The notes under the pieces were generated by a model. That model was not told where the DNA came from. It saw nothing but the letters and a program-made list of their open reading frames with translations, and searched no databases. From NCBI GenBank assembly GCA_963710605.1, contig CAVQBA010000006.1:64001-128000 (forward strand): a stretch of 64,000 bases of DNA. The letters are read 5' to 3'. Position numbers and translations under genes: made by a program. This DNA comes from an uncultured cyanobacterium (lineage in GTDB: Bacteria > Cyanobacteriota > Cyanobacteriia > Cyanobacteriales > Cyanobacteriaceae). Shown in pieces: positions 30,817 to 43,885 of the stretch (position 1 is the stretch's first letter; each line of letters starts with the position of its first letter).

Positions 30817-33769
30817 ATGTCGGCTAAAATTACTATTCGTGGTGCTAGACAGCATAACCTTAAAAATATCGATTTAGATTTACCTCGCAACCAATTAATT
30901 GTCTTTACAGGTGTTTCAGGATCTGGTAAATCATCCCTTGCTTTTGATACAATATTTGCAGAGGGGCAGCGTCGTTATGTAGAGTCTTTAAGTGCTTATG
31001 CTCGTCAATTTTTAGGGCAGTTAGATAAACCTGATGTTGATAGTATTGAAGGATTATCCCCCGCAATTTCGATCGATCAAAAATCAACTTCCAATAATCC
31101 TCGCTCTACAGTAGGTACGGTAACAGAAATTTACGATTATCTACGTTTACTTTATGGTAGGGCAGGCGAGCCTTTTTGTCCTAAATGCGGTCAATCGATC
31201 GCTCCTCAAACTATCGACGAAATGTGCGATCGTATTGTTAGTTTACCTGAAAAAAGCAAAATACATTTACTCGCTCCTGTGATTAGAGGTAAAAAAGGTA
31301 ATCATAGTCAACTACTCTCAGGATTAAGAAGTCAAGGTTTTGCCAGAGTTAAAGTTAATGGTGAAATTAGGGAATTAGCCGATAACATCGAGTTACAACC
31401 GCAACAAAAACACGATATTAGTGTAGTAGTCGATCGTTTGATTGTTAAACCAAAAATTCAAGAAAGACTTTCAGATTCGCTTTCTACCTGTCTTAAAATA
31501 GCCGATGGGATAGCGATCGTCGAGGTTTTAGATAGCCCCCCTAGCCAAGAAACCACCCCTAGTCACTCCTTGCAAGGAGAAGATACCACCCCTAGCCCCT
31601 CTTTGCAAGTAAACAAAACCACCCCTAGCCCCTCCTTTCAAGGAGGGGGAGAAGAAAAAGCCCCCCTTTGTAGAGACGTAGCATTGCTACGCCGTGGGGG
31701 TTGGGGGGATCAAATTGTCTTCTCAGAAAACTTTGCTTGTCCGACTCATGGGGCGGTAATAGAAGAGTTATCTCCTCGTTTGTTTTCTTTTAATTCTCCT
31801 TATGGTGCTTGTTCTAATTGTCACGGTTTGGGTACTTTGAAGCGATTTTCTCCTGATTTAGTTATACCAGATCCATCCGCTTCTGTCAGAAGTGCGATCG
31901 CACCTTGGCAATATAAAGATAATGACTATTATATGTCGTTACTTGAATATACCGCCGATGAATACAAATATAACCTAAGTGATAGTTGGGATAGTCTTAG
32001 TGAAAAACAACAACAGATTGTTTTGTATGGAGATAAAGAAATTCAAAATATTCAATATGGTTATTATCGAGGAGTTATTCCCATGTTGGAGAAAACTTAT
32101 CGAGAAACTAACTCTGAGATTATTAAACAAAAATTAGAGCAATATATCGAGCATCAAACCTGTGGCGTATGTGAAGGTAAACGGCTTAAACCCGAAACTC
32201 TTTCCGTCAGATTAGGGCAATACAATATTAATCATTTAACTAGCGTTTCGATTGATGAATGTTTAGAGAAAATAAATCAGATTGAATTGACACCCAGACA
32301 AGCACAAATTGGTGAGTTGGCTTTAAAAGAAATCAGAGAGCGATTACAATTTTTACTTGATGTTGGTTTAAACTACCTTACTCTCGATCGAACTGCCATG
32401 ACTTTATCTGGTGGTGAAGCACAACGTATTCGTTTAGCTACTCAAATTGGTTCAGGATTAACGGGAGTATTGTATGTTTTAGATGAGCCTAGTATCGGTT
32501 TACATCAACGAGATAACGATCGTTTACTAGAAACCTTAAAAAAATTACGAGATCTCGACAATACTTTGATTATTGTAGAACATGATGAGGATACCATCAA
32601 GTTTGCTGATTATATCGTTGATATTGGCCCGTAAAGCAGGTGTACATGGTGGCGAGATTGTCTGTAAGGGGAATTTACAAAAACTACTCAAATCAAGAAA
32701 GTCTCTCACAGGTGCTTATTTATCAGGACGTAAAAAAATTGAAATTCCTGAAACTAGAAGAGAAGGTAATGGTAAATTTTTAACCCTAAAAGACTGTCAT
32801 CGCAACAATTTAAGACATCTTGACGTAGATATACCTTTAGGTAAATTTGTGAGTGTAACAGGGGTTTCTGGTTCGGGTAAATCGACTTTAATTAATGAAC
32901 TACTATACCCTGCCTTGCAACATCATCTTAGTCGTAAAGTACCTTTTCCTAAAGAGTTAGGTAGTTTTGAAGGGATAGAAGCGATCGATAAAGCCATTGT
33001 AATTGATCAATCTCCCATCGGACGTACACCTCGATCGAATCCTGCCACTTATACAGGGGTATTTGATGTAATTCGGGATATGTTCACTAAGACAATAGAA
33101 GCAAAAGCTCGTGGTTATAAAGCAGGGCGTTTTTCTTTTAACGTCAAAGGAGGTAGATGTGAGGCTTGTAGTGGGCAAGGGGTAAATGTTATCTCGATGA
33201 ATTTTTTACCTGATGTCTATGTCCAATGTGATATTTGTAAAGGAGCAAGATATAACAGAGAGACACTACAGGTTAAGTATAAAGGACATTCGATCGCTGA
33301 TGTGTTGGATATGACGATCGAAGAAGCGTTAGTGGTATTTGAAAATATACCCCGTGCGGTGAATCGTTTACAAACTTTAGTTGATGTGGGTCTATCTTAT
33401 ATCAAGTTAGGACAATCTGCACCAACTCTTTCTGGTGGTGAAGCACAAAGGGTTAAGTTAGCCACCGAGTTATCTCGTCGGGCAACAGGTAAAACAATTT
33501 ATTTGATTGATGAGCCAACTACAGGTTTATCTTTTTATGATGTACATCATCTACTTAATGTATTACAAAGATTAGCAGATAAGGGTAATTCGATCGTGGT
33601 AATTGAGCATAATTTAGATGTAATTAAATGTGCCGATTGGATTATCGATTTAGGTTTAGAAGGTGGTGATAAAGGAGGAGAAATTATAGCAATGGGTACA
33701 CCTGAAGAGATTGCTAAGTCGAAGAAATCTTATTTGGCAAAGTATCTGAAGCCCTTGTTAAAGAAATAA
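30817..33769 (+). CDS. uvrA: Excinuclease ABC subunit A, split by a +1 frameshift at ~32631 and carrying an in-frame repeat insert
   Basis: Two GVSGSGKS Walker A and two LSGGEAQR motifs across ORFs 30817-32634 and 32582-33769; the expected DIGPKAGVHGG is broken at GGCCCGTAAAG. Confidence 0.95.
31534..31711 (+). repeat. In-frame repeat-derived insert in uvrA: 3 x 33-bp unit plus nested REP elements
   Basis: ACCACCCCTAG... units at 31552, 31585 and 31618; CCCCCCTTT[GTAGAGACGTAGCATTGCTACGCCGT]GGGGGTTGGGGGGAT. Confidence 0.85.
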
Positions 33770-33817
33770 TTTCTCTTTTTATAAATAAAATATTTGTTAA
33801 ATCAGTCATCAGCCAAA

Positions 33818-34075
33818 ATGTATGAACTTCAATATAGTAAAACTGCGATTAAAAAATTACGAAAAATACCCAAAAACTTGGTTAAAAGTATTCAACGCAA
33901 ATTAACGGAAATTGCTGAAAATCCTTATGAAAATCATCCTAACGCAAAAAAGCTAGTTGGTAGAAGAGGTTATAGGCTCAGAGTCGGTGATTGGAGAGTT
34001 ATTTACGAAATAGATAACGATAAAATTGTTATTCTAGTATTGACAATCGATACTAGAGGAGATGTTTATAAATGA
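33818..34075 (+). CDS. relE: RelE/ParE family toxin
   Basis: GYRLRVGDWRVIYEI...RGDVYK motif; ATGA overlap with the downstream antitoxin. Confidence 0.9.
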   Translation: MYELQYSKTAIKKLRKIPKNLVKSIQRKLTEIAENPYENHPNAKKLVGRRGYRLRVGDWRVIYEIDNDKIVILVLTIDTRGDVYK

Positions 34076-35258: not shown

Positions 35259-35489
35259 CTTTCAGGCGGTATTCGACGTGATTGAGAAAGACAAGACTTT
35301 ATGGCATTTTGGTTATATATATTGACAACGATCAAACTTTTATTGTTAAATTAATTTTGATCAAAATAACCTCTCTATCTAGTTATCATTTAGTAACAAG
35401 TATCTCAAAATCAAATCAACAAATTTTATAATCATCATTAATGTAAGAACTCATTTTTGAGACTTAAATTAATCATCAAAATTATTACC

Positions 35490-36879
35490 ATGAGTATTCA
35501 CAATATAAAACGCTTTTCAATATATGGACTTTTTGGGATCAATGATGTTCATATTCCTTTTAATGAAAATATTAAAATTTTAATAGGAGAAAATGGTTTA
35601 GGAAAAACTCAAGTATTAAATATTTTTTACTATACTTTAATAACAAATTTTTCTAAACTAAGTGAATTTTCTTTTGAAAAAATAGAACTTATACTATATC
35701 CTAATAACAAATTAATAACAATTAGTAAAAAAGAATGTCAAGAATATGTAGAAAATTATTATGAAGATCTTACTCTTAAAAAACTTGTTACTTTAATAGG
35801 ATTTGAGGCAACTGAAAAATTAATAAAAAAAGTACGTTACCGCAGTATTATTGAAACTAGACATTTTATCAAAAATAATCCACAATATAATCAAATTAAT
35901 CAAATAGCTCCAGTAGAATATATATTTAATTTACTACGAGAAGAAAGTAGTATAAATAAGCAACAAATAAAAAAAACACAGCATTTTATTTCAAATGATT
36001 TTGCCAATAAGGTTAGTGAAATTAAACAAAATTTTCCAGAAAATACGATTTTATACTTTCCGACATTTAGAAGAGTGGAAGAAGATTTATATAATTTAGG
36101 ATACGATGACGAAGACTTTTTTATTAACACAAAAGATATTCGTTTAATTAATTTCGGAATGGATGATGTGCAAAAACGTTTTGATGCTATTGAGAAAAAA
36201 ATAGATTTACTTTTGAAAGAAGGATTTAGCCAAATTACTAGTGAAATTTTAAGTAAATTAGTAAAGGGTTTTGGAGAAACAAATAAAAATATATTAGATG
36301 GAATCAGTGAAGCTGATATTGATATTATTTTGGCGAGAGTTGGAAATCAAATTCCCGAAACAGATAAATCAAGAATTAGAGATATTGTTTTTAACAAAAA
36401 AATTTCTGACGCAGATAACTCCTTGTTTTATTTTATTCAAATTTTGATAAATATATATGAAAAACAAAAAGAGTTAGATAGTTTGATTAATAGATTTCAA
36501 GAAGTATGTAATGAATATTTAATCGGAAAACAAGTGTCTTATGATGAAAGTAATATCAAAATATATATAGAATCTGATAATAGCAACGAACTTTTAACTT
36601 TAAATCAATTATCATCAGGAGAAAAACAAATTATTTCTATTTTTTCTACTATTTATCTTTCTGAAGAAAATGATAAATTTATTGTTTTATTTGATGAGCC
36701 AGAATTATCGTTATCTATGACTTGGCAAAAAAAATTATTACCTGATATAGTTAATTCAGGAAAATGTGATATTTCTTTTAGCTGTAACTCATTCACCCTT
36801 TATTTTTGATAATGAGTTAGATAAATATGCTATTGGTTTAAATGAATATGTTCAACCTTCAAAACTTGTATTATCTTAA
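35490..36879 (+). CDS. ariA: ABC/AAA_15-type ATPase, PARIS AriA-like (+1 frameshift at ~36771)
   Basis: GENGLGKT Walker A; YFPTFR; LSSGEKQ signature; FDEPELSL Walker B; the H-loop VTHSPFIF appears in the shifted frame ending at TAA 36879. Confidence 0.8.
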
Positions 36880-36882
36880 TAA

Positions 36883-37796
36883 ATGTCATATCTAGACGAA
36901 CTAAGAAAAGGTAGAAGTAAAGCTCAAGTTGCCTATCAAGATTTCATACTTCATACAAGAGCAAATAAAGATGGTTTGTTTTGTTTTTTTGAAGGTAAAG
37001 ATAACGTTTATTATATACCCAGAATAAAAAGATTTACTAACAAATATCATTCTATTCATTGTGGTGGAAGAGAGAAAGTTTTAAAGGTATATGAATTGAT
37101 TAATCATCATCGAGAATACGATAAATATAAGAAAGCATTTTTGATCGATCGAGATTTTAATTCTCCTTTATCACCTCCCAATCCAGATATTTTTGAAACA
37201 CCTTGTTATTCTATCGAAAATTTTTATGTTTCTGTTAATGTTTTTCAAGAAATTATTAAAAATTACTTTTATTTATCAGAAATTAGTCAAGAATTTGAAA
37301 TTTGCCTTCAATTATTCAAAGAAAGACAAAAAGAATTTCATCAAGCTGTTATTTTATTTAACGCTTGGTATGCGTGCTTGATAGATAAAAAAAAGAAACA
37401 GGATTACAAACGGGTGTTAATTTATGCGATAAATTACCGAAAGGATTTGTTGAGTTTAAATTAGAGAAAATAACTCAAAAATATAATATTGAAACGATAA
37501 ACAATCAATTTACTAACGCATTAGAAATTTCAGAAGATATTCTGCAAGAAAAAATTAATAAATTTACATCTTGCGAGCAAAGTAAAGTCTTTAGAGGTAA
37601 ATATGAAATGGAATTTATGTTAAAAATTATTGAGTTGATTTTACAAGATTCTTTAAAAAACAAGAAATATATAAAATGTAAAATAAAATCTCTATTTGCT
37701 GATAAAATAAGTAATGAACAAGCGTTAACTATTTTTTCGGATTGTGCTGAAACACCTAAAGTTCTTGAAGAGTATTTAACTACGATTATAAAATAG
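36883..37796 (+). CDS. ariB: DUF4435/TOPRIM-like nuclease, PARIS AriB-like (frameshift in the A-run 37387-37394)
   Basis: FFEGKD, CGGREKV, IDRDF (DxD) and YSIEN motifs; FRGKYEMEF after the frameshift; starts 3 nt after the ATPase. Confidence 0.78.
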
Positions 37797-38001: not shown

Positions 38002-38283
38002 GTGATTAAATCTTTTAAAAATAAAGAAACAGAGAAAATCTTTAATCGAAAGCGATCGTCCAAATTACCATCAGATATACAACAAATAGCCTTACGTAAG
38101 TTAAGAATAATTAACAGAGTACAAAATCTTCAAGAGTTAAAAATACCTCCTGCTAACCGTTTAGAAAAACTAAAAGGAGAAAGATTCGGTCAATATAGTA
38201 TTAGAATAAACAATCAATGGAGAATCTGTTTTGAATGGCAAGATGATAATGCCTTTAATGTCGAAATAGTAGATTATCACTAA
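38002..38283 (+). CDS. higB: HigB (RelE-like, killer) toxin
   Basis: PPANRLEKLKG..QYSIRINNQWRICF..VEIVDYH. Confidence 0.93.
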   Translation: MIKSFKNKETEKIFNRKRSSKLPSDIQQIALRKLRIINRVQNLQELKIPPANRLEKLKGERFGQYSIRINNQWRICFEWQDDNAFNVEIVDYH

Positions 38284-38289
38284 AAAATT

Positions 38290-38583
38290 ATGACATCAGA
38301 AAAATTACAACCAATTCACCCAGGAGAAATTCTTTTAGAAGAGTTTTTAAAACCTTTACAAATAAGTACCGAAAATCTCGCTCAAGAATTAAAAGTTTCT
38401 CCAGAAATTATTCATAATATAATTGAGAAAAAACAATCTATTACTGCTGATATTGCTTTGCGTTTAGCCCGTTACTTTCAAATTTCACCACAATTTTGGC
38501 TGGGTTTACAAATTGATTATGATTTAGATTTCGCCGAAGATAATTTTGGAAAACAAATTGAGCAAGAAGTTATGGCATTATAA
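38290..38583 (+). CDS. higA: HigA antitoxin (XRE HTH)
   Basis: PIHPGEILLEEFL and ALRLARYF..FWLGLQ motifs. Confidence 0.93.
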   Translation: MTSEKLQPIHPGEILLEEFLKPLQISTENLAQELKVSPEIIHNIIEKKQSITADIALRLARYFQISPQFWLGLQIDYDLDFAEDNFGKQIEQEVMAL

Positions 38584-38823: not shown

Positions 38824-38891
38824 TCATTGTTATCGAGCATAATTTAGATGTAATAAAGTGTGCTTATAGGATTATTAATTTGAGTTTAGAA
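38824..38891 (+). repeat. Degenerate copy of the uvrA 3' region
   Basis: 38831-38891 matches 33601-33661 at 50 of 61 positions by manual alignment ([11 protein letters not shown]). Confidence 0.85.
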
Positions 38892-40053
38892 TGAAAAAAA
38901 AGAAAGCAACTAAAGATTATTTTCCTTTCAAAAGTATAATATGTCTCCATACAATTATCGACTACAGTGTTGGAAGTAGTTATAGTTCTTCTCAGTGGAA
39001 AGAATATAGAGAAAAAAGCCAAAGTTTTCATTTCCCTTCGATTTTTCACCCTGCTTATTTTGGTATATCTAATCATAATCACAGATTAGTTTGTTATTGG
39101 GATTTAGGTTATAAAACCTCATGGATTAATACTCGGTATTTGTGTTCATCGGAATGGGAACAAGCTTTTGAATTAAATCAAGCTCATGATTTTGGACTTA
39201 TAAAAGAAGGAAAAATAGGTGTTTTTAACTATCAAGATAGTTTTTTGGAAATTAAATATTGAGACTGAGGTATATCATCAAGAAGGATATTTAGGAAGTT
39301 GTGGTAAGAATATTATTTGTCCTTATGAATTTACTATTGTATCTGTTTTTGAATGACAAGAAGAAGATTGGGAAAATCTAGCTAATATTGATACTCGTCA
39401 ATTTATTGTTTGGAATAGTGAAACTAATTTTAAATATTTTAAATACGAATATTATCGAAATCCTGTATTTGATGAAGCAAATCCTTTATATAAATTAAGC
39501 AATCATCCATCTTGTTTTGTTTTTACTCCTGATGCTCAATTTTTAGTTGTTTGCTATGAATGTAGAAATGATGATTCTTATCAATCAATTATTGATAAAT
39601 CTCTTATACAAATTTGGCAGATAGAATCGGGTGAATTAGTAAAAACGATCGATAATCTTCCTTTATTAACGATCGATTCTTTAGCAATTAACGAAAACGA
39701 AGAAATCATCGCTTCAGGTGTTAGAGAAGATAAAGTCTGCGTTTGGAATCTTGCCCATGACTCTATTATTAAAAGTTTTGAGAGTGTCTCCCCTACTCTT
39801 TTAACATCAGACGGAAGAGTTTTAATTTACTGTAATCAAGAGAATGAAATTGTCGTGTGGGATTTAGAAAAAAGACGATGAATTACGAAGATTAAAAGGT
39901 CATACATCCACAATTATATATTTAAAGATGAGTAACGTTCGGCAAAGCCGCACCTTCGGTGAGCGAGATTTTATAGTTAGTTATAGTATCGATACGGAAA
40001 TTAGAATTTGGGGTTTGTCGAAAAATAAGAGACGAAAGAGAAAAAAGAAATAG
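38891..40053 (+). pseudogene. WD40-repeat protein pseudogene
   Basis: Fragments FVFTPDAQFLV, IQIWQIESGELVKTI, VCVWNL, IVVWDLE, LKGHTS and IRIWG, interrupted by several stops and frameshifts. Confidence 0.75.
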
Positions 40054-40148
40054 TTGAATATTTTTGATTGAAGATATCAAAGACAAATAGATAAAACTAG
40101 ATAAAAGTTAGGTAGTCAGATTGATATTATTGAGCTACAATATAGTTG

Positions 40149-40164
40149 GTTGTCGATCGACAAC
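40149..40164. promoter_or_regulatory. Perfect 16-bp palindrome (candidate operator) just downstream of a sigma70-like promoter
   Basis: GTTGTCGATCGACAAC; TACAAT at 40136-40141 and TAGTCA at 40113-40118 (17-bp spacer). Confidence 0.6.
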
Positions 40165-40184
40165 TCGTACTTTAACGGTATTTT

Positions 40185-40433
40185 ATGGCAGAAAAACATC
40201 CTAAGAAGGAAATTCGTGAGGCGATTGATTATGCACAAAAACATGATTGGACGATCGAAAAATCAAACTCTCATGCACATATTTGGGGAAAGATGCTTTG
40301 TAAATATAATGATTCCTCTTGTAGATGTGGAAAGCATTGTATAACAAGTATTTCTTCTACTCCTCCTAATCCGTCAAATCATGCAAGAAAACTGAAAAGG
40401 ATTGTGAGAAACTGTACACATTTTGACTCATAA
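40185..40433 (+). CDS. Small Cys/His-rich protein, HicA-like putative toxin
   Basis: HPKKEIREAIDYAQKHDWTIEKSNSHAHIWG..C..CRCG..C..STP.NP.NH; basic, 82 aa. Confidence 0.7.
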   Translation: MAEKHPKKEIREAIDYAQKHDWTIEKSNSHAHIWGKMLCKYNDSSCRCGKHCITSISSTPPNPSNHARKLKRIVRNCTHFDS

Positions 40434-40547
40434 AGTCACTTAAAACAGTATAAGTTCATTTGTCAAATAGAGTGGATTAATTTCCGCTCTTTTAATAAAA
40501 ATTATTTTCTTGATGTACAAATAAATTAAATTATCAAGATATCAATT

Positions 40548-41072
40548 ATGAAAGAATACGATTTCGCTTTAAATTTCAAATTTTCTAACCCAGAAATAAA
40601 TCCAGAAATTTATTTAGATGCACTTTACGAAGCGGGTTTAAGTGATGCTGTATTTGGTATCGGAGAAAAAGGTGGTATATCTGTTGATATTATCCGAGAA
40701 TCTGAATCTGCATATGATGCTATTTATAGTGCAATTGAACAAGTAAAATCAGTTATTCCTGATGCCAATTTAACTCATGTATCTCCTGATATAGTTGGAG
40801 TAAGAGATTTAGCAGAAATATTTGAATGTACTAGACAAAATATTCAAAAATTTGTCTCAAAAAGAGATTTTCCTGAACCATTATATAAAAATTCTCAAGC
40901 TATTTGGTATTTAAGAACTGTTTTAAGATGGTTTACTCAAAACTCTGACAAAAAAATAAATCAAGAAATGATAGATGTAGCTGAATTAGCTAGAGAAATT
41001 AATTTATCTTTAGAAAAAAAATTATCAAATCCCGAATTATCCGATTCAGCAGAACAATTAGTTATAATTTAA
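40548..41072 (+). CDS. Putative antitoxin/DNA-binding protein (HicB-like N-domain plus AlpA-like HTH)
   Basis: Acidic N-domain (RESESAYDAIYSAIEQV) followed by DIVGVRDLAEIFECTRQNIQK..FPEP..W (HTH). Confidence 0.7.
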   Translation: MKEYDFALNFKFSNPEINPEIYLDALYEAGLSDAVFGIGEKGGISVDIIRESESAYDAIYSAIEQVKSVIPDANLTHVSPDIVGVRDLAEIFECTRQNIQKFVSKRDFPEPLYKNSQAIWYLRTVLRWFTQNSDKKINQEMIDVAELAREINLSLEKKLSNPELSDSAEQLVII

Positions 41073-41372
41073 TTTTTAATTGAAGCAATAGATTTATATT
41101 TACAATCTGATAAAAAGTATAATCTGTTAAGAAAGTATTTGAACAATTTATTCAAATAGTCAATTAATTTACTGTTCGTACAACCAATTTATTGGATGAC
41201 AGGATATTCAAAATCGAATAATTATCGAATCGTAAAAATAGGTGACTTTTATCAAATAATTTAGATAATTTTACCGTTCACCAACTTATTAACGATCGAA
41301 AAAAATCTTGTAAATCAATCAATCTTGTCAAATCTTGATACTAACATGAAAAAATAAAATAACAATACTAAC

Positions 41373-43885
41373 TTATAAAGTCTGTTGACGAATAATAAAA
41401 TTTTGCACCTTATCTCGATATATTTGTAAATGATTTTCTGCCCATTCACGACTATCACTATTGGCATAGATATGTACTAATGGTTCTCCGGCATCGGGTA
41501 AAATTGAAATCCAGTTATCAGTATGATTTTCGTTTATTTTAACGCCGTCGATTAATTCTAAATTTTCAGGTGATTCAGTTTCTACCATATGTCTCATCAA
41601 AGCCCCTTTCACCTTCCATGGGCAACGTACAGAAAATGATTTGTAGTAAACAAGAGGTAATTCGCTTCTGACTTGTGCTAATGTTCGCTCTTGAATAGTA
41701 AGCATTTCAATCAATTTAGCGATCGTAAACATGGCATCAAATCCCGGATGTAGTTGCGGAAAGATAAAGCCCATATTGCCACTACCACCTAAAACAACAT
41801 TAGGATTATTTTGGGTTGCTTCCATCAAAGCCGTTGGATTAACTTTAGTTCGAATCACGTTACCATCATGACGACGGGCAATTTGTTCAACAGCAGAGGA
41901 AGTATCAATCGGTACAACTACAGTCAATCGAGGATAAGCTGTTAAGATAGTATTCACCATCAAAGCCGTTAATTCTTGCCCTCTGATATTAATACCAGAT
42001 TCATCAACTAAAACGAGTAACTCACCATTAGCGGATACTTGTACACCAAAACTAGCATTAAGTGCTTCAACTACTTGCCCTAACTGAGACAATAAATCTT
42101 CTTTTTCAATATTAGAAATCGCTCGTTGTCGCAGACTAGCATTTAACACCACCGCATCACAATCAAATTTAGCGAGTAACTGAGGTAAAATTGCACCTGA
42201 AACTGAATAAACATAGTCGATAACAATTTTACTGTTACTATTACGCACAGCTTCTAAATTGATCAGAGTTTCAAATGTTTTACTATAAGCATCTACTACT
42301 TGAGCAGGATAAGCCATATCGCCAATATCCACTCCTTGCACTCTTCTTAAATCTTCTTTGAAATAAGCACCTTCGATTTTTTTCTCTTTGGCTTTAGAAA
42401 TATTAATCCCGTTACGATCGAAAAATTCAATTAACATATAATCATGTCGATCGGGATGAAGCCGAACATGAATACCACCAGCGACACCTAAAGTGGGTGT
42501 CATCGTACGAGAGATAGGAATGGCAGTTGCTTGCAAATTTTGAATTTCGATACCCACAGACATCAAACCAGCGATGATAGAACGACTAACCATTCGTGAT
42601 ACCGTTCTTTGATCTCTAGATACAACTACGCTACTACCGATTTTGATAGTTGAACCATAAGCCGCCCCTAATTTTACGGCAAATTCAGGAGTTATATCAA
42701 TATTAGCTAACCCCGTCACGCCCCTTTGTCCAAAAAGGTTACGATAGGCGATATTCCCCCAAATCAGGTTGATATTAAGAGTTGCACCAGATTCAATTTG
42801 TTTACTGGCAAACTTTTACGCCGATATTAATTTGAGCTTCTTCACCAATGTTACATAATCGCCGAATGACTGCCCCTTCTAAAATATGCGATCGACAATC
42901 GACTCTACTACCACGGGCGATAATACAAGCAGAAAGAGATGTTTCTTCACCAACAATTGCACCATTCCAAATAATTGGACGAGAAAGTTCGGCATCATTG
43001 CCAACAGTTACATTATCACCAATAATTGTCCCACTGAGAATTTTTGCTCTTGCACCGATACGACAGCCATCACCGATAAAAACAGGGCTTTCAACGATCG
43101 CACTAGGATCGATATATGTGTTCTCACCAATCCAAATACCAGGTTGAGTTTCTTTTGAGGTAAATTCTAACTCGACTTTTTTTTCTAATGCGTCGTAATG
43201 AGCTTCACGATAAGTATCTAAATGACCAACATCACACCAATAGCCATCAGCTACATAACCATACATCGGTTCTCCTAATTCGAGTAATAAAGGAAATAAA
43301 TCGTTGGAGAAATCAGATTCTTCGTTTTCAGGTAAATATTTTAAAACTTCAGGCTCAAGGATATAAATACCTGTATTGACTGTATCGGAAAAAATTTCAC
43401 TAGTGGAGGGTTTTTCTAAAAATCTTTGAATTTGATTTTCTTTATTGGTAATGACAACGCCAAATTCGAATCGGGTTTGGTACTCTTTTAAGAATTAAAG
43501 TAGCAGTCGCTTTTTTTTCTCGGTGAAAATCGATCGCTTCTTGTAAATTAAAATCAGTAATACTATCACCGCTAATAACGATAAAAGTATCATCTAAAAC
43601 TTCTTCAATATTTTTTACACATCCTGCCGTACCCAAAGGTTGCTCTTCTTCTACCGCATAAGTAAGATTCACACCAAAATCACTACCGTCATGAAAATAG
43701 TTGCGCATCACATCGGGTAAATAATGTACCGTAGCGATCACCTCAGTAATACCGTATTTTCTCAGTAAATTGATGATATGTTCGGCAATAGGTCGGTTTA
43801 AAACAGGTACCATTGGCTTGGGTAAGTCACAAGTCAAAGGGCGTAATCTTGTCCCCGAACCTCCAGCCATTAAAACAGCACGCAT
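41373..43885 (-). CDS. Mannose-1-phosphate guanylyltransferase / phosphomannomutase fusion, split by two frameshifts (~43470, ~42808)
   Basis: MAGGSGTRLRPLT..PKP, FLEKP, YWCDVG, hexapeptide repeats and a PGM/PMM domain, spread over three consecutive ORFs. Confidence 0.9.

Follow-up and report, generated by a model that had tools for sequence, protein, structure and literature searches.

A conserved gene pair with a predicted palindromic operator in a cyanobacterial genome: a candidate type II toxin-antitoxin-like family

Results

A two-gene unit in a small toxin-antitoxin and defence island

Two open reading frames on the forward strand, A and B, lie behind a perfect palindrome in the window (the whole 64-kb stretch of DNA that was analysed). 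The unit and its neighbours comprise:

40113-40141, forward strand: candidate promoter TAGTCA-17-TACAAT, 9/12 consensus matches
40149-40164, no strand: predicted operator, 16-bp palindrome GTTGTCGATCGACAAC, the local version of TTGTC-N4-GACAA
40157-40184, forward strand: alternative promoter TCGACA-16-TATTTT, 9/12 consensus matches, at a position homologous to the family's TTGACA-17-TAnnnT
40185-40433, forward strand: gene A, 82 aa, computed pI 9.40 (basic), putative toxin/effector (PDC-M06A)
40459-40499, forward strand: RNA hairpin in the A-B spacer followed by a U-rich stretch, called from folding energy against shuffles
40548-41072, forward strand: gene B, 174 aa, computed pI 4.58 (acidic), putative antitoxin/autorepressor (PDC-M06B)
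33794-34075: ParE, neighbour in the window
35457-37464: AriA/AriB-like pair, neighbour in the window
38002-38583: HigB/HigA, neighbour in the window

A sequence-only reading had described an 82-aa basic protein carrying S29-H30-A31-H32 and five cysteines, followed by a 174-aa acidic protein, and both open reading frames are as described, the cysteines of A being C39, C46, C48, C52 and C77. The toxin-antitoxin (TA) and defence-gene setting proposed in that reading is borne out by the adjoining ParE, AriA/AriB-like and HigB/HigA genes, with housekeeping genes downstream; the A/B pair is a further member of a small TA/defence island, and the local biology is not unusual.

The spacer between A and B, at 114 nt, is unusually long compared with relatives, where the gap is -14 to +29 nt at loci in which A reads through to its usual end. 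Its minimum free energy is -21.2 kcal/mol (z -3.70), with one of 200 shuffles equally good, and despite this stable hairpin a terminator scan found no intrinsic terminator between A and B. The hairpin may serve for attenuation or for RNA processing, and it cannot be common to those homologues in which the A-B gap is short.

The pair is conserved across variable contexts and matches a catalogue entry

Both proteins match PADLOC models over their full length: A matches PDC-M06A with E 2.8e-33 (six M06A models match), and residues 1-171 of the 174 residues of B match PDC-M06B with E 3e-52. PDC-M06 (Payne et al., bioRxiv 10.1101/2024.01.29.577857) is therefore the same family as A/B. The preprint gives PDC-M06 as one of 145 PDC systems that are untested computational phage defence candidates, and its main text does not mention M06 (10.1101/2024.01.29.577857). 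The pair thus has an existing entry, but a candidate entry rather than a characterised family. A literature search found no paper on PDC-M06 in any spelling tried, which agrees with the earlier statement that no experimental characterisation was known; searches for HicA with zinc or cysteine, HicA-like with AlpA, and SSU5 with toxin-antitoxin returned nothing on the A/B family.

We examined 80 B-anchored loci drawn from the 297 genomic relatives of B among 185,579 species genomes; loci were fetched with the B query and ranked by B score. The two genes, read from the beginning as a module, do travel together elsewhere: of the 80 loci, which come from Cyanobacteriota, Pseudomonadota and one anammox planctomycete, 68 have an A homologue directly 5' of B and in the same orientation. 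A k-mer search with A returned 2 proteins only, and the A family was recovered through the loci together with an exhaustive search of representatives, which gave 801 representative clusters (50% identity) at E<=1e-3. An A-B fusion protein of 261 aa also exists; one of its two cluster members was seen on 1 contig and the other on 7. The ORFs closest to the pair on either side, 142 in all, form a heterogeneous set, most being housekeeping genes or without assignment, and include no conserved third gene, while TIR, Eco57I-type methylase, Uma2 and NADAR proteins are neighbours at some loci. A/B is a conserved co-directional pair, the putative toxin gene first, in variable contexts.

The A ORF passes a strict intactness test in 55 of the 80 loci. 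At 13 loci A is truncated, frameshifted, duplicated or ambiguous, some of these frameshifts perhaps being assembly errors since many loci are contigs of metagenome-assembled genomes, and 12 loci have no A match at E<=1e-3, four of them retaining short A remnants. A is decayed or missing beside an intact B at up to 24 of 79 assessable loci in this B-biased sample, and wherever one gene of a B-anchored locus is damaged it is A; because loci were fetched and ranked by B, A-only loci are invisible and this asymmetry is biased.

A predicted operator overlaps the family promoter

The perfect palindrome GTTGTCGATCGACAAC proposed in the sequence-only reading is real, and 20 nt separate it from the start codon (ATG) of A. 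The window contains a single copy of its 14-nt core; allowing up to two mismatches yields 2 matches where 0.32 would be expected, a number reached in 4 of 100 shuffles. TTGTC-N4-GACAA, which that reading suggested looking for upstream of homologues, is indeed kept there: of 67 assessable loci, 55 carry the motif within 150 nt 5' of A. Across the 749,867 nt of loci there are 68 matches against 0.45 expected, and all 68 are located at A/B units, orphan B genes included; where A is gone, the motif stands directly 5' of B (L013, L041, L060, L069 and L071). In 44 loci the right half-site reads TTGACA, the -35 hexamer, with TAnnnT 16-18 nt beyond it in 41. This conserved operator at the pair's own promoter gives indirect support for DNA binding by B, and its conservation from cyanobacteria to proteobacteria while doubling as the -35 box would make a clean model of autoregulation.

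The promoter at the present locus is less clear. The sigma70-like promoter proposed upstream of the palindrome (40113-40141) is at chance level and so counts as weak, the region 39900-41400 holding 10 promoter-like sites against 9.5 expected; transcripts from it would begin near the palindrome's left edge. The -10 element of the alternative promoter (40157-40184), which is the family-type arrangement, abuts the ATG of A, so this promoter may be unused here. Together with the 114-nt spacer, this means that expression at the present locus may differ from that of the family.

Methylation-sensitive operator binding had also been suggested from the GATC at the centre of the palindrome. As a family feature this fails: a GATC centre occurs in 0 of 60 homologous operator sites and is unique to the present locus. 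CGATCG occurs 139 times in the window against 5.2 expected, and a genome-wide CGATCG excess accounts for the GATC centre. Orphan methyltransferases for GATC and CGATCG are present in cyanobacteria (PMC4390886), and a methylation-sensitive operator is possible at this single locus.

Protein A combines a small alpha-beta fold with a conserved Cys/His cluster

Protein A has no Pfam or NCBIfam match even at E<=10, and the best hit of a PDB profile search, a thioredoxin reductase at E 0.12, is spurious. Its AlphaFold2 (AF2) model has a mean pLDDT of 84.2 and the topology alpha-beta-beta-beta-alpha (helix 8-19, strands 23-26, 33-38 and 53-57, helix 63-76). Foldseek against the PDB gave a best E of 0.48, with double-stranded RNA-binding domains (dsRBDs) at E 0.84-3 among the matches listed; against BFVD the top match, unnamed, reached E 8.1e-4 with TM 0.67/0.75. 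Neither these PDB comparisons nor Pfam, NCBIfam or the PDB profile search gave a significant match of A to any enzyme.

All five cysteines noted earlier are present in A, but in an alignment of 56 sequences C48 is not conserved, while the other four (C39, C46, C52, C77) are invariant along with H32 and W34. Over 150 diverse representatives, H32 is conserved in 135, C39 in 144, C52 in 131 and C77 in 130, making the last three near-universal. In the model C39, C46 and C52 form a knuckle between strands 2 and 3, and C77 follows helix 2; H32 immediately precedes strand 2, where most homologues carry Gly-Gly-Ser-His. Metal binding by A is plausible from this pattern of residues. The dsRBD of fission-yeast Dicer has a zinc-binding motif embedded in the dsRBD fold (PMC3199388) and offers a precedent, by analogy only, for zinc in such a fold; unlike A, it is eukaryotic, part of a large protein and without a toxin role, and no homology between it and A was detected.

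Protein B is a two-domain protein predicted to bind A

Protein B likewise has no Pfam or NCBIfam match at E<=10, the HicB Pfam family included, and a search of the ESM Atlas returned its own family alone. The model (pLDDT 94.0) shows an N-domain (1-80), a winged helix-turn-helix (HTH; about 85-132) and a helical tail (139-173). Because this tail follows the HTH, the domain previously placed at the C-terminus is in fact central. The N-domain is ferredoxin-like (beta-alpha-beta-beta-alpha-beta), and residues 1-80 match ACT, PII, EF-1beta and acylphosphatase domains in the PDB, with a best Foldseek E of 8.9e-3. The helices at 85-132 weakly resemble winged HTHs in a PDB profile search (gpNu1, E 0.25 and 0.49; an AlpA-family protein, E 1.6), and B is named in source annotations as an AlpA-like regulator or excisionase.

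A prediction of the A-B complex scored 0.84, compared with 0.01 for the best of three controls. Of 157 solved complexes 116 reached the mark used for this score, as did 2 of 215 mismatched pairs; because the alignments were our own, these figures apply here only approximately. At least 94% of contacts recur between runs, and the partner pLDDT is 80 or more. The modelled interface involves residues 3-49 and 86-90 of B and residues 30-33, 36, 48-57, 59-62, 65-66 and 68-76 of A, so that the N-domain of B contacts A and B is placed over the conserved His face of A. The prediction supports direct binding of A by B.

Homologous units on phage-plasmids and plasmids

A homologues are found on 291 plasmids, and the cassette is also present in the genome of the Salmonella phage-plasmid SSU5, where SSU5_055 and SSU5_054 form a homologous two-gene unit in the same order and on the same strand (SSU5_055 with A, BLASTP E 1e-16, 32% identity; SSU5_054 with B, tblastn E 2e-8). 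In SSU5 and the plasmid homologues an upstream palindrome overlaps a TTGAC-type -35 element; the E. coli plasmid operator differs in that its half-sites are in the opposite order (GTTGACA-N2-TGTCAAC). These homologues of A also differ in having His in place of some knuckle Cys: in a pairwise alignment the SSU5 protein has His opposite C48 and C52, and the E. coli plasmid protein has two His in the knuckle stretch. Annotation of the SSU5 and E. coli plasmid genes goes no further than hypothetical protein and excisionase/transcriptional regulator.

In SSU5 and in one SSU5-like plasmid of E. coli, the pair occupies the same site, between replication genes. Such a fixed site fits a core regulatory role equally well as an addiction role.

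Discussion

Our best reading is that A/B represents a new, computationally catalogued type II TA-like family in which A is a putative toxin, and we consider it somewhat probable that the two genes form an autoregulated, self-contained cassette of type II toxin-antitoxin character, toxin gene first. Gene order, co-occurrence, operator conservation, fold topology and the predicted binding form the observed and computed basis of the model. From these we infer how the unit might work, from DNA binding by B and metal binding by A to RNase activity, toxicity and the trigger. B would act as a dimeric winged-HTH repressor on TTGTC-N4-GACAA within the pair's promoter and, as the right half-site is the -35 hexamer TTGACA in most relatives, would shut off both genes. 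Its ferredoxin-like N-domain would clamp A by extending the beta-sheet, covering the face that bears the conserved His32 and Asn65-His66 and so keeping A inactive. A is pictured as a small basic protein of dsRBD/HicA topology stapled by its Cys/His cluster (C39, C46, C52, C77), which most likely would bind Zn. Loss of B, whether by proteolysis, by host transcription shut-off in phage infection or by loss of the plasmid or phage-plasmid, would free A, which then most likely would cleave or bind RNA and cause growth arrest.

It is possible, though we lean against it, that the cassette is devoted to phage defence by abortive infection, with A freed by a phage cue, a reading that overlaps the TA model and is not exclusive of it. 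The PDC-M06 models matched by both proteins point this way. PDC systems were selected on the strength of some members found inside BREX, DISARM or type I RM loci, but the 145 systems are candidates by the preprint's own account (10.1101/2024.01.29.577857). Similarly, the AriA/AriB-like pair, HigBA and ParE beside the pair in the window, and the TIR, Eco57I-type methylase, Uma2 or NADAR neighbours at some other loci, must be set against 142 nearest flanking ORFs that are mostly housekeeping or unassigned. The presence of the unit in phage SSU5 and on 291 plasmids points at least equally to the maintenance of mobile elements.

More doubtful is a non-toxic switch in which B represses and carries an N-terminal sensor domain and A is a small Zn-binding anti- or co-repressor; the pair would control lysogeny or maintenance in phage-plasmids and survive as a remnant in chromosomes. 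The weak resemblance of the HTH of B to AlpA and to the lambda gpNu1 winged HTH (E 0.25-1.6) and the AlpA-like regulator or excisionase annotations would suit such a regulator, yet the operator is found only at the cassette's own promoter (68/68 matches, 750 kb), so no regulated target is visible, and there is no conserved third gene. The shared site between replication genes in SSU5 and one E. coli plasmid would also suit a switch, whereas the chromosomal copies sit in unrelated contexts, like selfish TA cassettes. That A lacks a significant enzyme match and that B often persists alone with its operator are consistent with a regulatory role; against this, the strongest conservation of A lies in the His/Asn residues under the modelled B, which would resemble a masked active site.

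The reading with which the work began, that A and B are true but divergent members of HicA/HicB, we now regard as improbable. HicAB systems share much with the pair: the toxin gene leads; the toxin is basic and small (50-100 aa), of alpha1-beta1-beta2-beta3-alpha2 topology, with a conserved His where beta2 begins; the antitoxin joins an N-terminal neutralising domain to a DNA-binding domain; and the antitoxin represses from a palindromic operator at its own promoter, a role that is putative for B (PMC12297915, PMC11594946). The catalytic His of HicA sits at the start of strand 2 (PMC12297915), and A shares this positional feature, its conserved His being preceded by a Gly. What survives of the HicA-like assignment of A is the AF2 topology, with Gly-Gly-Ser-His at the start of strand 2; none of the sequence tests bore it out, and there is no significant PDB fold match. 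HicA_toxin (PF07927) gave no Pfam match to A at E<=10. The ESM Atlas provided one lead, a neighbour cluster auto-named HicA family toxin (score 0.91, rank 3), and two BFVD proteins annotated as HicA-like match A at TM 0.51-0.61 but with E 0.14-0.15, while no HicA chain is among the matches listed by Foldseek against the PDB for A, and no HicB chain among those listed for B. None of the favourable matches is significant.

Two routes by which A might have been bridged to HicA were discarded. Through relatives, 3 of 150 A representatives match HicA_toxin (best E 0.047), fewer than the 7 that match a chance family, RuBisCO_small. By hhalign, the A family alignment (A2) against a true HicA alignment (A4) gave a probability of 0.36% and E 0.17 over 17 columns, this short alignment superimposing the G-S-H of A on that of HicA; a second alignment (A3) against A4 gave 0.40% over 7 columns of unaligned tail and is meaningless. 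The HicA alignment is narrow (25 sequences, 24 of them at least 62% identical to the query), and a broader HicA profile might do better.

The differences from HicAB extend to both proteins. HicB is defined by a partial RNase H fold (PMC12297915), whereas the putative neutralising domain of B is ferredoxin-like (ACT/PII-like) and B has no HicB Pfam match, which removes the HicB identity given to it earlier; its putative DNA-binding domain is an AlpA/MerR-like winged HTH with a helical tail. A term search of a 2024 HicAB review found neither "cysteine" nor "zinc" (PMC11594946). Neither by sequence, by profile nor by PDB fold does A match HicA significantly, and it carries a conserved Cys/His knuckle between beta2 and beta3 that is tied to the Cys after alpha2. 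Least credible of all is that A is a nuclease or nucleic-acid-binding protein of another kind, stabilised by Zn, such as a beta-beta-alpha-metal (His-Me/HNH-like) DNA nuclease, to whose motif layout its His before a beta-hairpin, Asn-His at the start of the following helix and flanking Cys can be likened, since A has no Pfam or NCBIfam HNH match at E<=10, no HNH protein is among the matches listed by Foldseek against the PDB and BFVD, and its His/Cys order differs from the usual Cys-pair/His/Asn/Cys-pair.

For the type II TA-like cassette that we prefer, a more far-reaching version can be put forward, though we think it rather unlikely to hold in full: A would found a separate large branch of dsRBD-fold toxins with an integral and possibly regulatory (metal- or redox-gated) Cys/His cluster, B would define a new antitoxin class built of a ferredoxin-like clamp and a winged HTH, and the cassette would be an addiction or abortive-infection module of SSU5-group phage-plasmids circulating in Enterobacteriaceae. 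Given the same site in SSU5 and one SSU5-like plasmid of E. coli, the cassette may help to account for the maintenance of these large low-copy elements. Should A prove toxic and be neutralised by B, the pair would add a widespread and so far uncharacterised family to the type II TA systems, with a metal-stapled toxin that is HicA-like in shape only and an antitoxin architecture not previously described.

The A/B cassette and its neighbourhood

Gene A, a putative toxin gene, and its partner B, a putative antitoxin or repressor gene, follow a perfect palindrome, and the ORF pair and palindrome are present in the sequence as the sequence-only reading had stated. The features of the region are as follows.

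33794-34075: ParE-family toxin ORF (Pfam, 1.2e-14), directly after uvrA fragments
35457-36809 and 36883-37464: AriA/AriB-like pair
38002-38583: HigB/HigA, toxin-antitoxin (TA) genes of the island
38879-40053: decayed WD40-repeat gene, immediately 5′ of the cassette
40113-40141: candidate promoter TAGTCA-17-TACAAT, score 9/12
40149-40164: perfect palindrome GTTGTCGATCGACAAC, 20 nt 5′ of the ATG of A
40157-40184: candidate promoter TCGACA-16-TATTTT, score 9/12
40185-40433, + strand: ORF A, 82 aa, computed pI 9.40
40548-41072, + strand: ORF B, 174 aa, computed pI 4.58

Translation of ORF A gives S29-H30-A31-H32 and cysteines at positions 39, 46, 48, 52 and 77. The proposed setting in a TA/defence island is borne out by the ParE, AriA/AriB-like and HigB/HigA genes near the cassette. 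The AAA_15 ATPase of the 35457-37464 pair matches AriA (2.3e-25) and its DUF4435 protein matches AriB (8.3e-35); the two proteins resemble a PARIS-like defence pair. WD40/beta-propeller remnants in the decayed gene lie in three stop-to-stop frames of different phases, below gathering scores, and phosphomannomutase-type housekeeping genes lie 3′ of the cassette. UvrA-like domains are divided between two overlapping ORFs (30817-32634 and 32582-33769), which could mean that uvrA is frameshifted, a pseudogene or wrongly sequenced.

A and B form an autonomous cassette

Scanning one genome per species with an alignment of B (44 sequences) yielded 297 B relatives, and the loci around the best 80 of these were analysed. 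Cyanobacteria are in the majority, accompanied by beta-, gamma- and alphaproteobacteria and one Candidatus Anammoxibacter MAG. The two genes co-occur elsewhere: tblastn with A places an A homologue directly 5′ of B, in the same orientation, in 68 of the 80 B-anchored loci. Of the 80 loci, 55 pass a strict test for an intact A (start codon, N-terminal motif, His/Cys core and no more than 100 aa), and in 13 A is truncated, frameshifted, duplicated or ambiguous (L003, L005, L016, L025, L029, L035, L040, L055, L056, L059, L061, L072 and L075). A was not matched by tblastn at E≤1e-3 in the remaining 12, one of which (L039) ends at a contig edge and four of which (L007, L052, L060, L071) retain short A remnants. 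Decay of A next to an intact B is the pattern predicted for a toxin-antitoxin pair, observed here in a biased sample, as the loci were retrieved and ranked via B and many are MAG contigs.

In Geminocystis sp. CENA526, a second copy (L007, 5929-6519; protein P0042, 206 aa) keeps the opening ~30 codons of A, joined in frame to B, which looks like a deletion removing the body of A, and the A of the other copy (L003) has no in-frame start codon. At L059 (5629-5997), the Cys-knuckle/strand-3 segment is tandemly duplicated within A, which is 122 aa long. Full-length A and B also occur naturally joined by a linker in one 261-aa protein (P0077/P0333), whose cluster at 90% identity comprises two members, present on 1 and 7 contigs, from sources that include NCBI, JGI, Logan and ENA.

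Among the 142 nearest flanking ORFs scanned, no recurrent partner gene was found, and thus the A/B pair is an autonomous cassette. The flanking ORFs include housekeeping genes and other TA genes (three PIN-domain ORFs, one PIN_4-PhoH, MazF, Phd and TacA), together with Uma2, TIR, Eco57I-type methylase, resolvase, transposase and ParA ORFs.

Searches of Pfam and NCBIfam gave no match to either protein at a threshold as loose as E≤10. Both match the PADLOC-DB phage defence candidate PDC-M06, A through model M06A (2.8e-33) and B over its full length through M06B (3e-52). The source preprint describes 145 PDC systems, selected for "guilt by embedding" within loci of BREX, DISARM or type I RM, and presents all of them as untested candidates (10.1101/2024.01.29.577857); M06 is not mentioned in its main text, and a literature search for PDC-M06 by name found no publication. 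The family is already catalogued yet uncharacterised.

The cassette on plasmids and phage SSU5

B (tblastn) matches 204 plasmid records and phage SSU5. The SSU5 homologue of B is preceded by SSU5_055, which encodes a 78-aa protein homologous to A (BLASTP E 1e-16, 32% identity); as a query this protein matched 291 plasmids, each match spanning 80% of it or more (Enterobacter 81, Escherichia 80, Yersinia 63, Citrobacter 20, and others), and the window's A matched 18 plasmids or megaplasmids of cyanobacteria, Ralstonia and Rhodobacterales. The pairs of Salmonella phage SSU5 (L081, 2212-3079) and E. coli plasmid pXH988_2 (L083, 1998-2846) share a position between the DNA polymerase gene and the SSB/exonuclease genes, are annotated only as hypothetical or AlpA-like regulator, and have upstream palindromes that overlap a TTGAC-type -35 element. 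On plasmid pAQ7 of Picosynechococcus sp. PCC 7002 (L082, 2238-3010), B is intact (169 aa) and A is cut to 52 aa, a remnant missing from the plasmid gene table. The carrier of this copy is a model cyanobacterium.

The predicted operator travels with B

Conservation of TTGTC-N4-GACAA upstream of homologues, predicted by the sequence-only reading, strongly holds: 55 of 67 assessable loci (those with an A match and 100 nt or more of sequence upstream) carry the motif no further than 150 nt upstream of A, and several of the other 12 have one-mismatch versions. Across the 749,867 nt of the loci it occurs 68 times against 0.45 expected, and all 68 matches are positioned at A/B units. In the window, the 14-nt core of the palindrome occurs once, with 2 matches against 0.32 expected when up to two mismatches are allowed. 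In loci without A, the motif stands upstream of B itself, at 73 nt (L013), 76 nt (L041), 105 nt (L069), 141 nt (L060) and 150 nt (L071); thus the operator travels with B.

The claim of a sigma70-like promoter is weak: the two relevant sites each score 9/12, and the 10 promoter-like sites in 39900-41400 are at chance level (9.5 expected). Across loci, the right half-site of the operator is TTGACA in 44 and is followed 16-18 nt downstream by TAnnnT in 41, so that the predicted operator serves as -35 box in a canonical promoter. Mostly, the -10 element is only a few nt upstream of the start codon, which suggests short-leader or leaderless transcripts. Where A reaches its usual end, -14 to +29 nt separate its stop from the start of B. 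The window's spacer measures 114 nt and contains a stable hairpin (z -3.70), and the family-type -10 element directly abuts the ATG of A, so the transcript layout here may differ from that of the family; a hicA-hicB spacer of 174 bp is a precedent for such length (PMC11594946). Two operators ~47 nt apart in five Chamaesiphon-type or related loci (L040, L045, L050, L053, L062) suggest a subgroup in which two B dimers bind cooperatively.

The CGATCG core of the window's operator had been read as a methylation target that could make binding methylation-sensitive. Among 60 sites upstream of A the central four bases are ACTT (29), AGTT (10), ATTT (4), AATT (4) and others, and GATC at none. The window (32.7% G+C) contains 139 CGATCG against 5.2 expected, 14 GCGATCGC against 0.2, and 244 GATC against 196. 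This excess is the hyper-abundant palindrome of HIP1 type, a known bias of cyanobacteria (PMC4390886, PMC5861425), in a very AT-rich genome. The operator core is best explained by this genome-wide bias, and selection for methylation control was set aside.

The model of A has the dsRBD/HicA topology

In an alignment of 56 A sequences (the window's A, P0002 and 54 translations from the loci), H32, W34, C39, C46, C52 and C77 are invariant and H5, N65-H66 and S-T-P 58-60 nearly so; the five cysteines noted at the outset are present, but C48 is not invariant. An exhaustive profile search extended the relatives to 801 representative clusters at E≤1e-3 (340 at E≤1e-10).

Residues of A kept in the best 150 representatives
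C39: 144
H32: 135
C52: 131
C77: 130 (0 substitutions, 20 gaps)
H66: 110
C46: 96
C48: 63

Homologues with swapped residues bear on the role of the cluster: in a pairwise alignment, C48 and C52 of the window's A align with His in the SSU5 protein, and the E. coli plasmid protein carries two His in the same stretch. These Cys/His swaps favour metal ligation over disulfides.

The AF2 model of A (pLDDT 84.2, pTM 0.72) comprises helix 8-19, strands 23-26, 33-38 and 53-57, and helix 63-76, the same alpha-beta-beta-beta-alpha order as in dsRBD/HicA proteins, with the Cys knuckle (39-52) inserted between strands 2 and 3. H32 stands at the start of strand 2, the position described for the HicA catalytic His (PMC12297915). 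Foldseek against viral models gave an unnamed protein as top match (E 8.1e-4, TM 0.67/0.75) and two proteins annotated HicA-like (TM 0.51-0.61, E 0.14-0.15), and a neighbouring ESM Atlas cluster carries the automatic name HicA family toxin (score 0.91). In our reading of the model, A resembles HicA in shape and His placement.

Topology and His position thus agree with the claim of a HicA-like toxin, but no significant sequence, profile or PDB-fold match does. Pfam HicA_toxin matched 3 of 150 relatives (best E 0.047, noise level), a PDB profile search found nothing, and Foldseek against PDB reached E 0.48 at best, its listed matches including dsRBDs (E 0.84-3) but not a HicA chain. A true HicA alignment (25 sequences) was seeded from a Pfam-confirmed HicA-type gene that lies a few kb from the cassette in L003 (9522-9752; HicA_toxin 1.1e-9); hhalign against it gave a probability of 0.36%, over 17 columns that place G-S-H upon G-S-H. 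A is not assignable to the HicA family. Another HicA-type gene lies a few kb from the cassette in L049 (7924-8178; 8.8e-5, 23 bits, below the 27-bit cut-off), and this gene and that of L003 were the reference in comparing A with HicA.

B is predicted to cover the conserved face of A

The AF2 model of B (pLDDT 94.0) has a beta-alpha-beta-beta-alpha-beta N-domain (1-80), helices with a short strand (85-132) and a long helical hairpin (139-173). The earlier identification of B as HicB is rejected, as the model has no partial RNase H fold; Foldseek against PDB listed only ACT, PII, EF-1beta and acylphosphatase-type domains (best E 8.9e-3), HicB being absent among the matches listed. Residues 82-155 aligned weakly with the winged HTH of lambda gpNu1 (E 0.25 and 0.49, PDB profile search) and with an AlpA-family protein (E 1.6). 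The putative HTH is central in the model, with the hairpin after it, and not C-terminal as had been proposed.

Complex prediction supports A-B binding, with a score of 0.84 against 0.01 for the best of three controls. Of 157 solved complexes, 116 attain the mark used for this score, as do 2 of 215 mismatched pairs; these counts are only rough here because our own alignments were used. The runs share at least 94% of contacts, with partner pLDDT at least 80. PDB searches found no related complex, so the prediction is unlikely to be recall of a solved homologue. The predicted interface comprises B residues 3-49 and 86-90 and A residues 30-33, 36, 48-57, 59-62, 65-66 and 68-76, with B strand 35-39 paired with A strand 53-55; in this arrangement B would cover H32 and N65-H66 of A.

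Proposed mechanism

Operator conservation, co-occurrence, gene architecture, fold topology and the predicted interface are what the analysis shows. We infer that B, probably dimeric, would bind DNA at the palindrome and repress the promoter of the pair, and that its N-domain would mask A on its conserved His face. Loss of B, the putative trigger, would free A, whose toxicity would then stop growth. The freed protein would most likely be an RNase or an RNA-binding protein that owes its stability to a Cys/His metal site.
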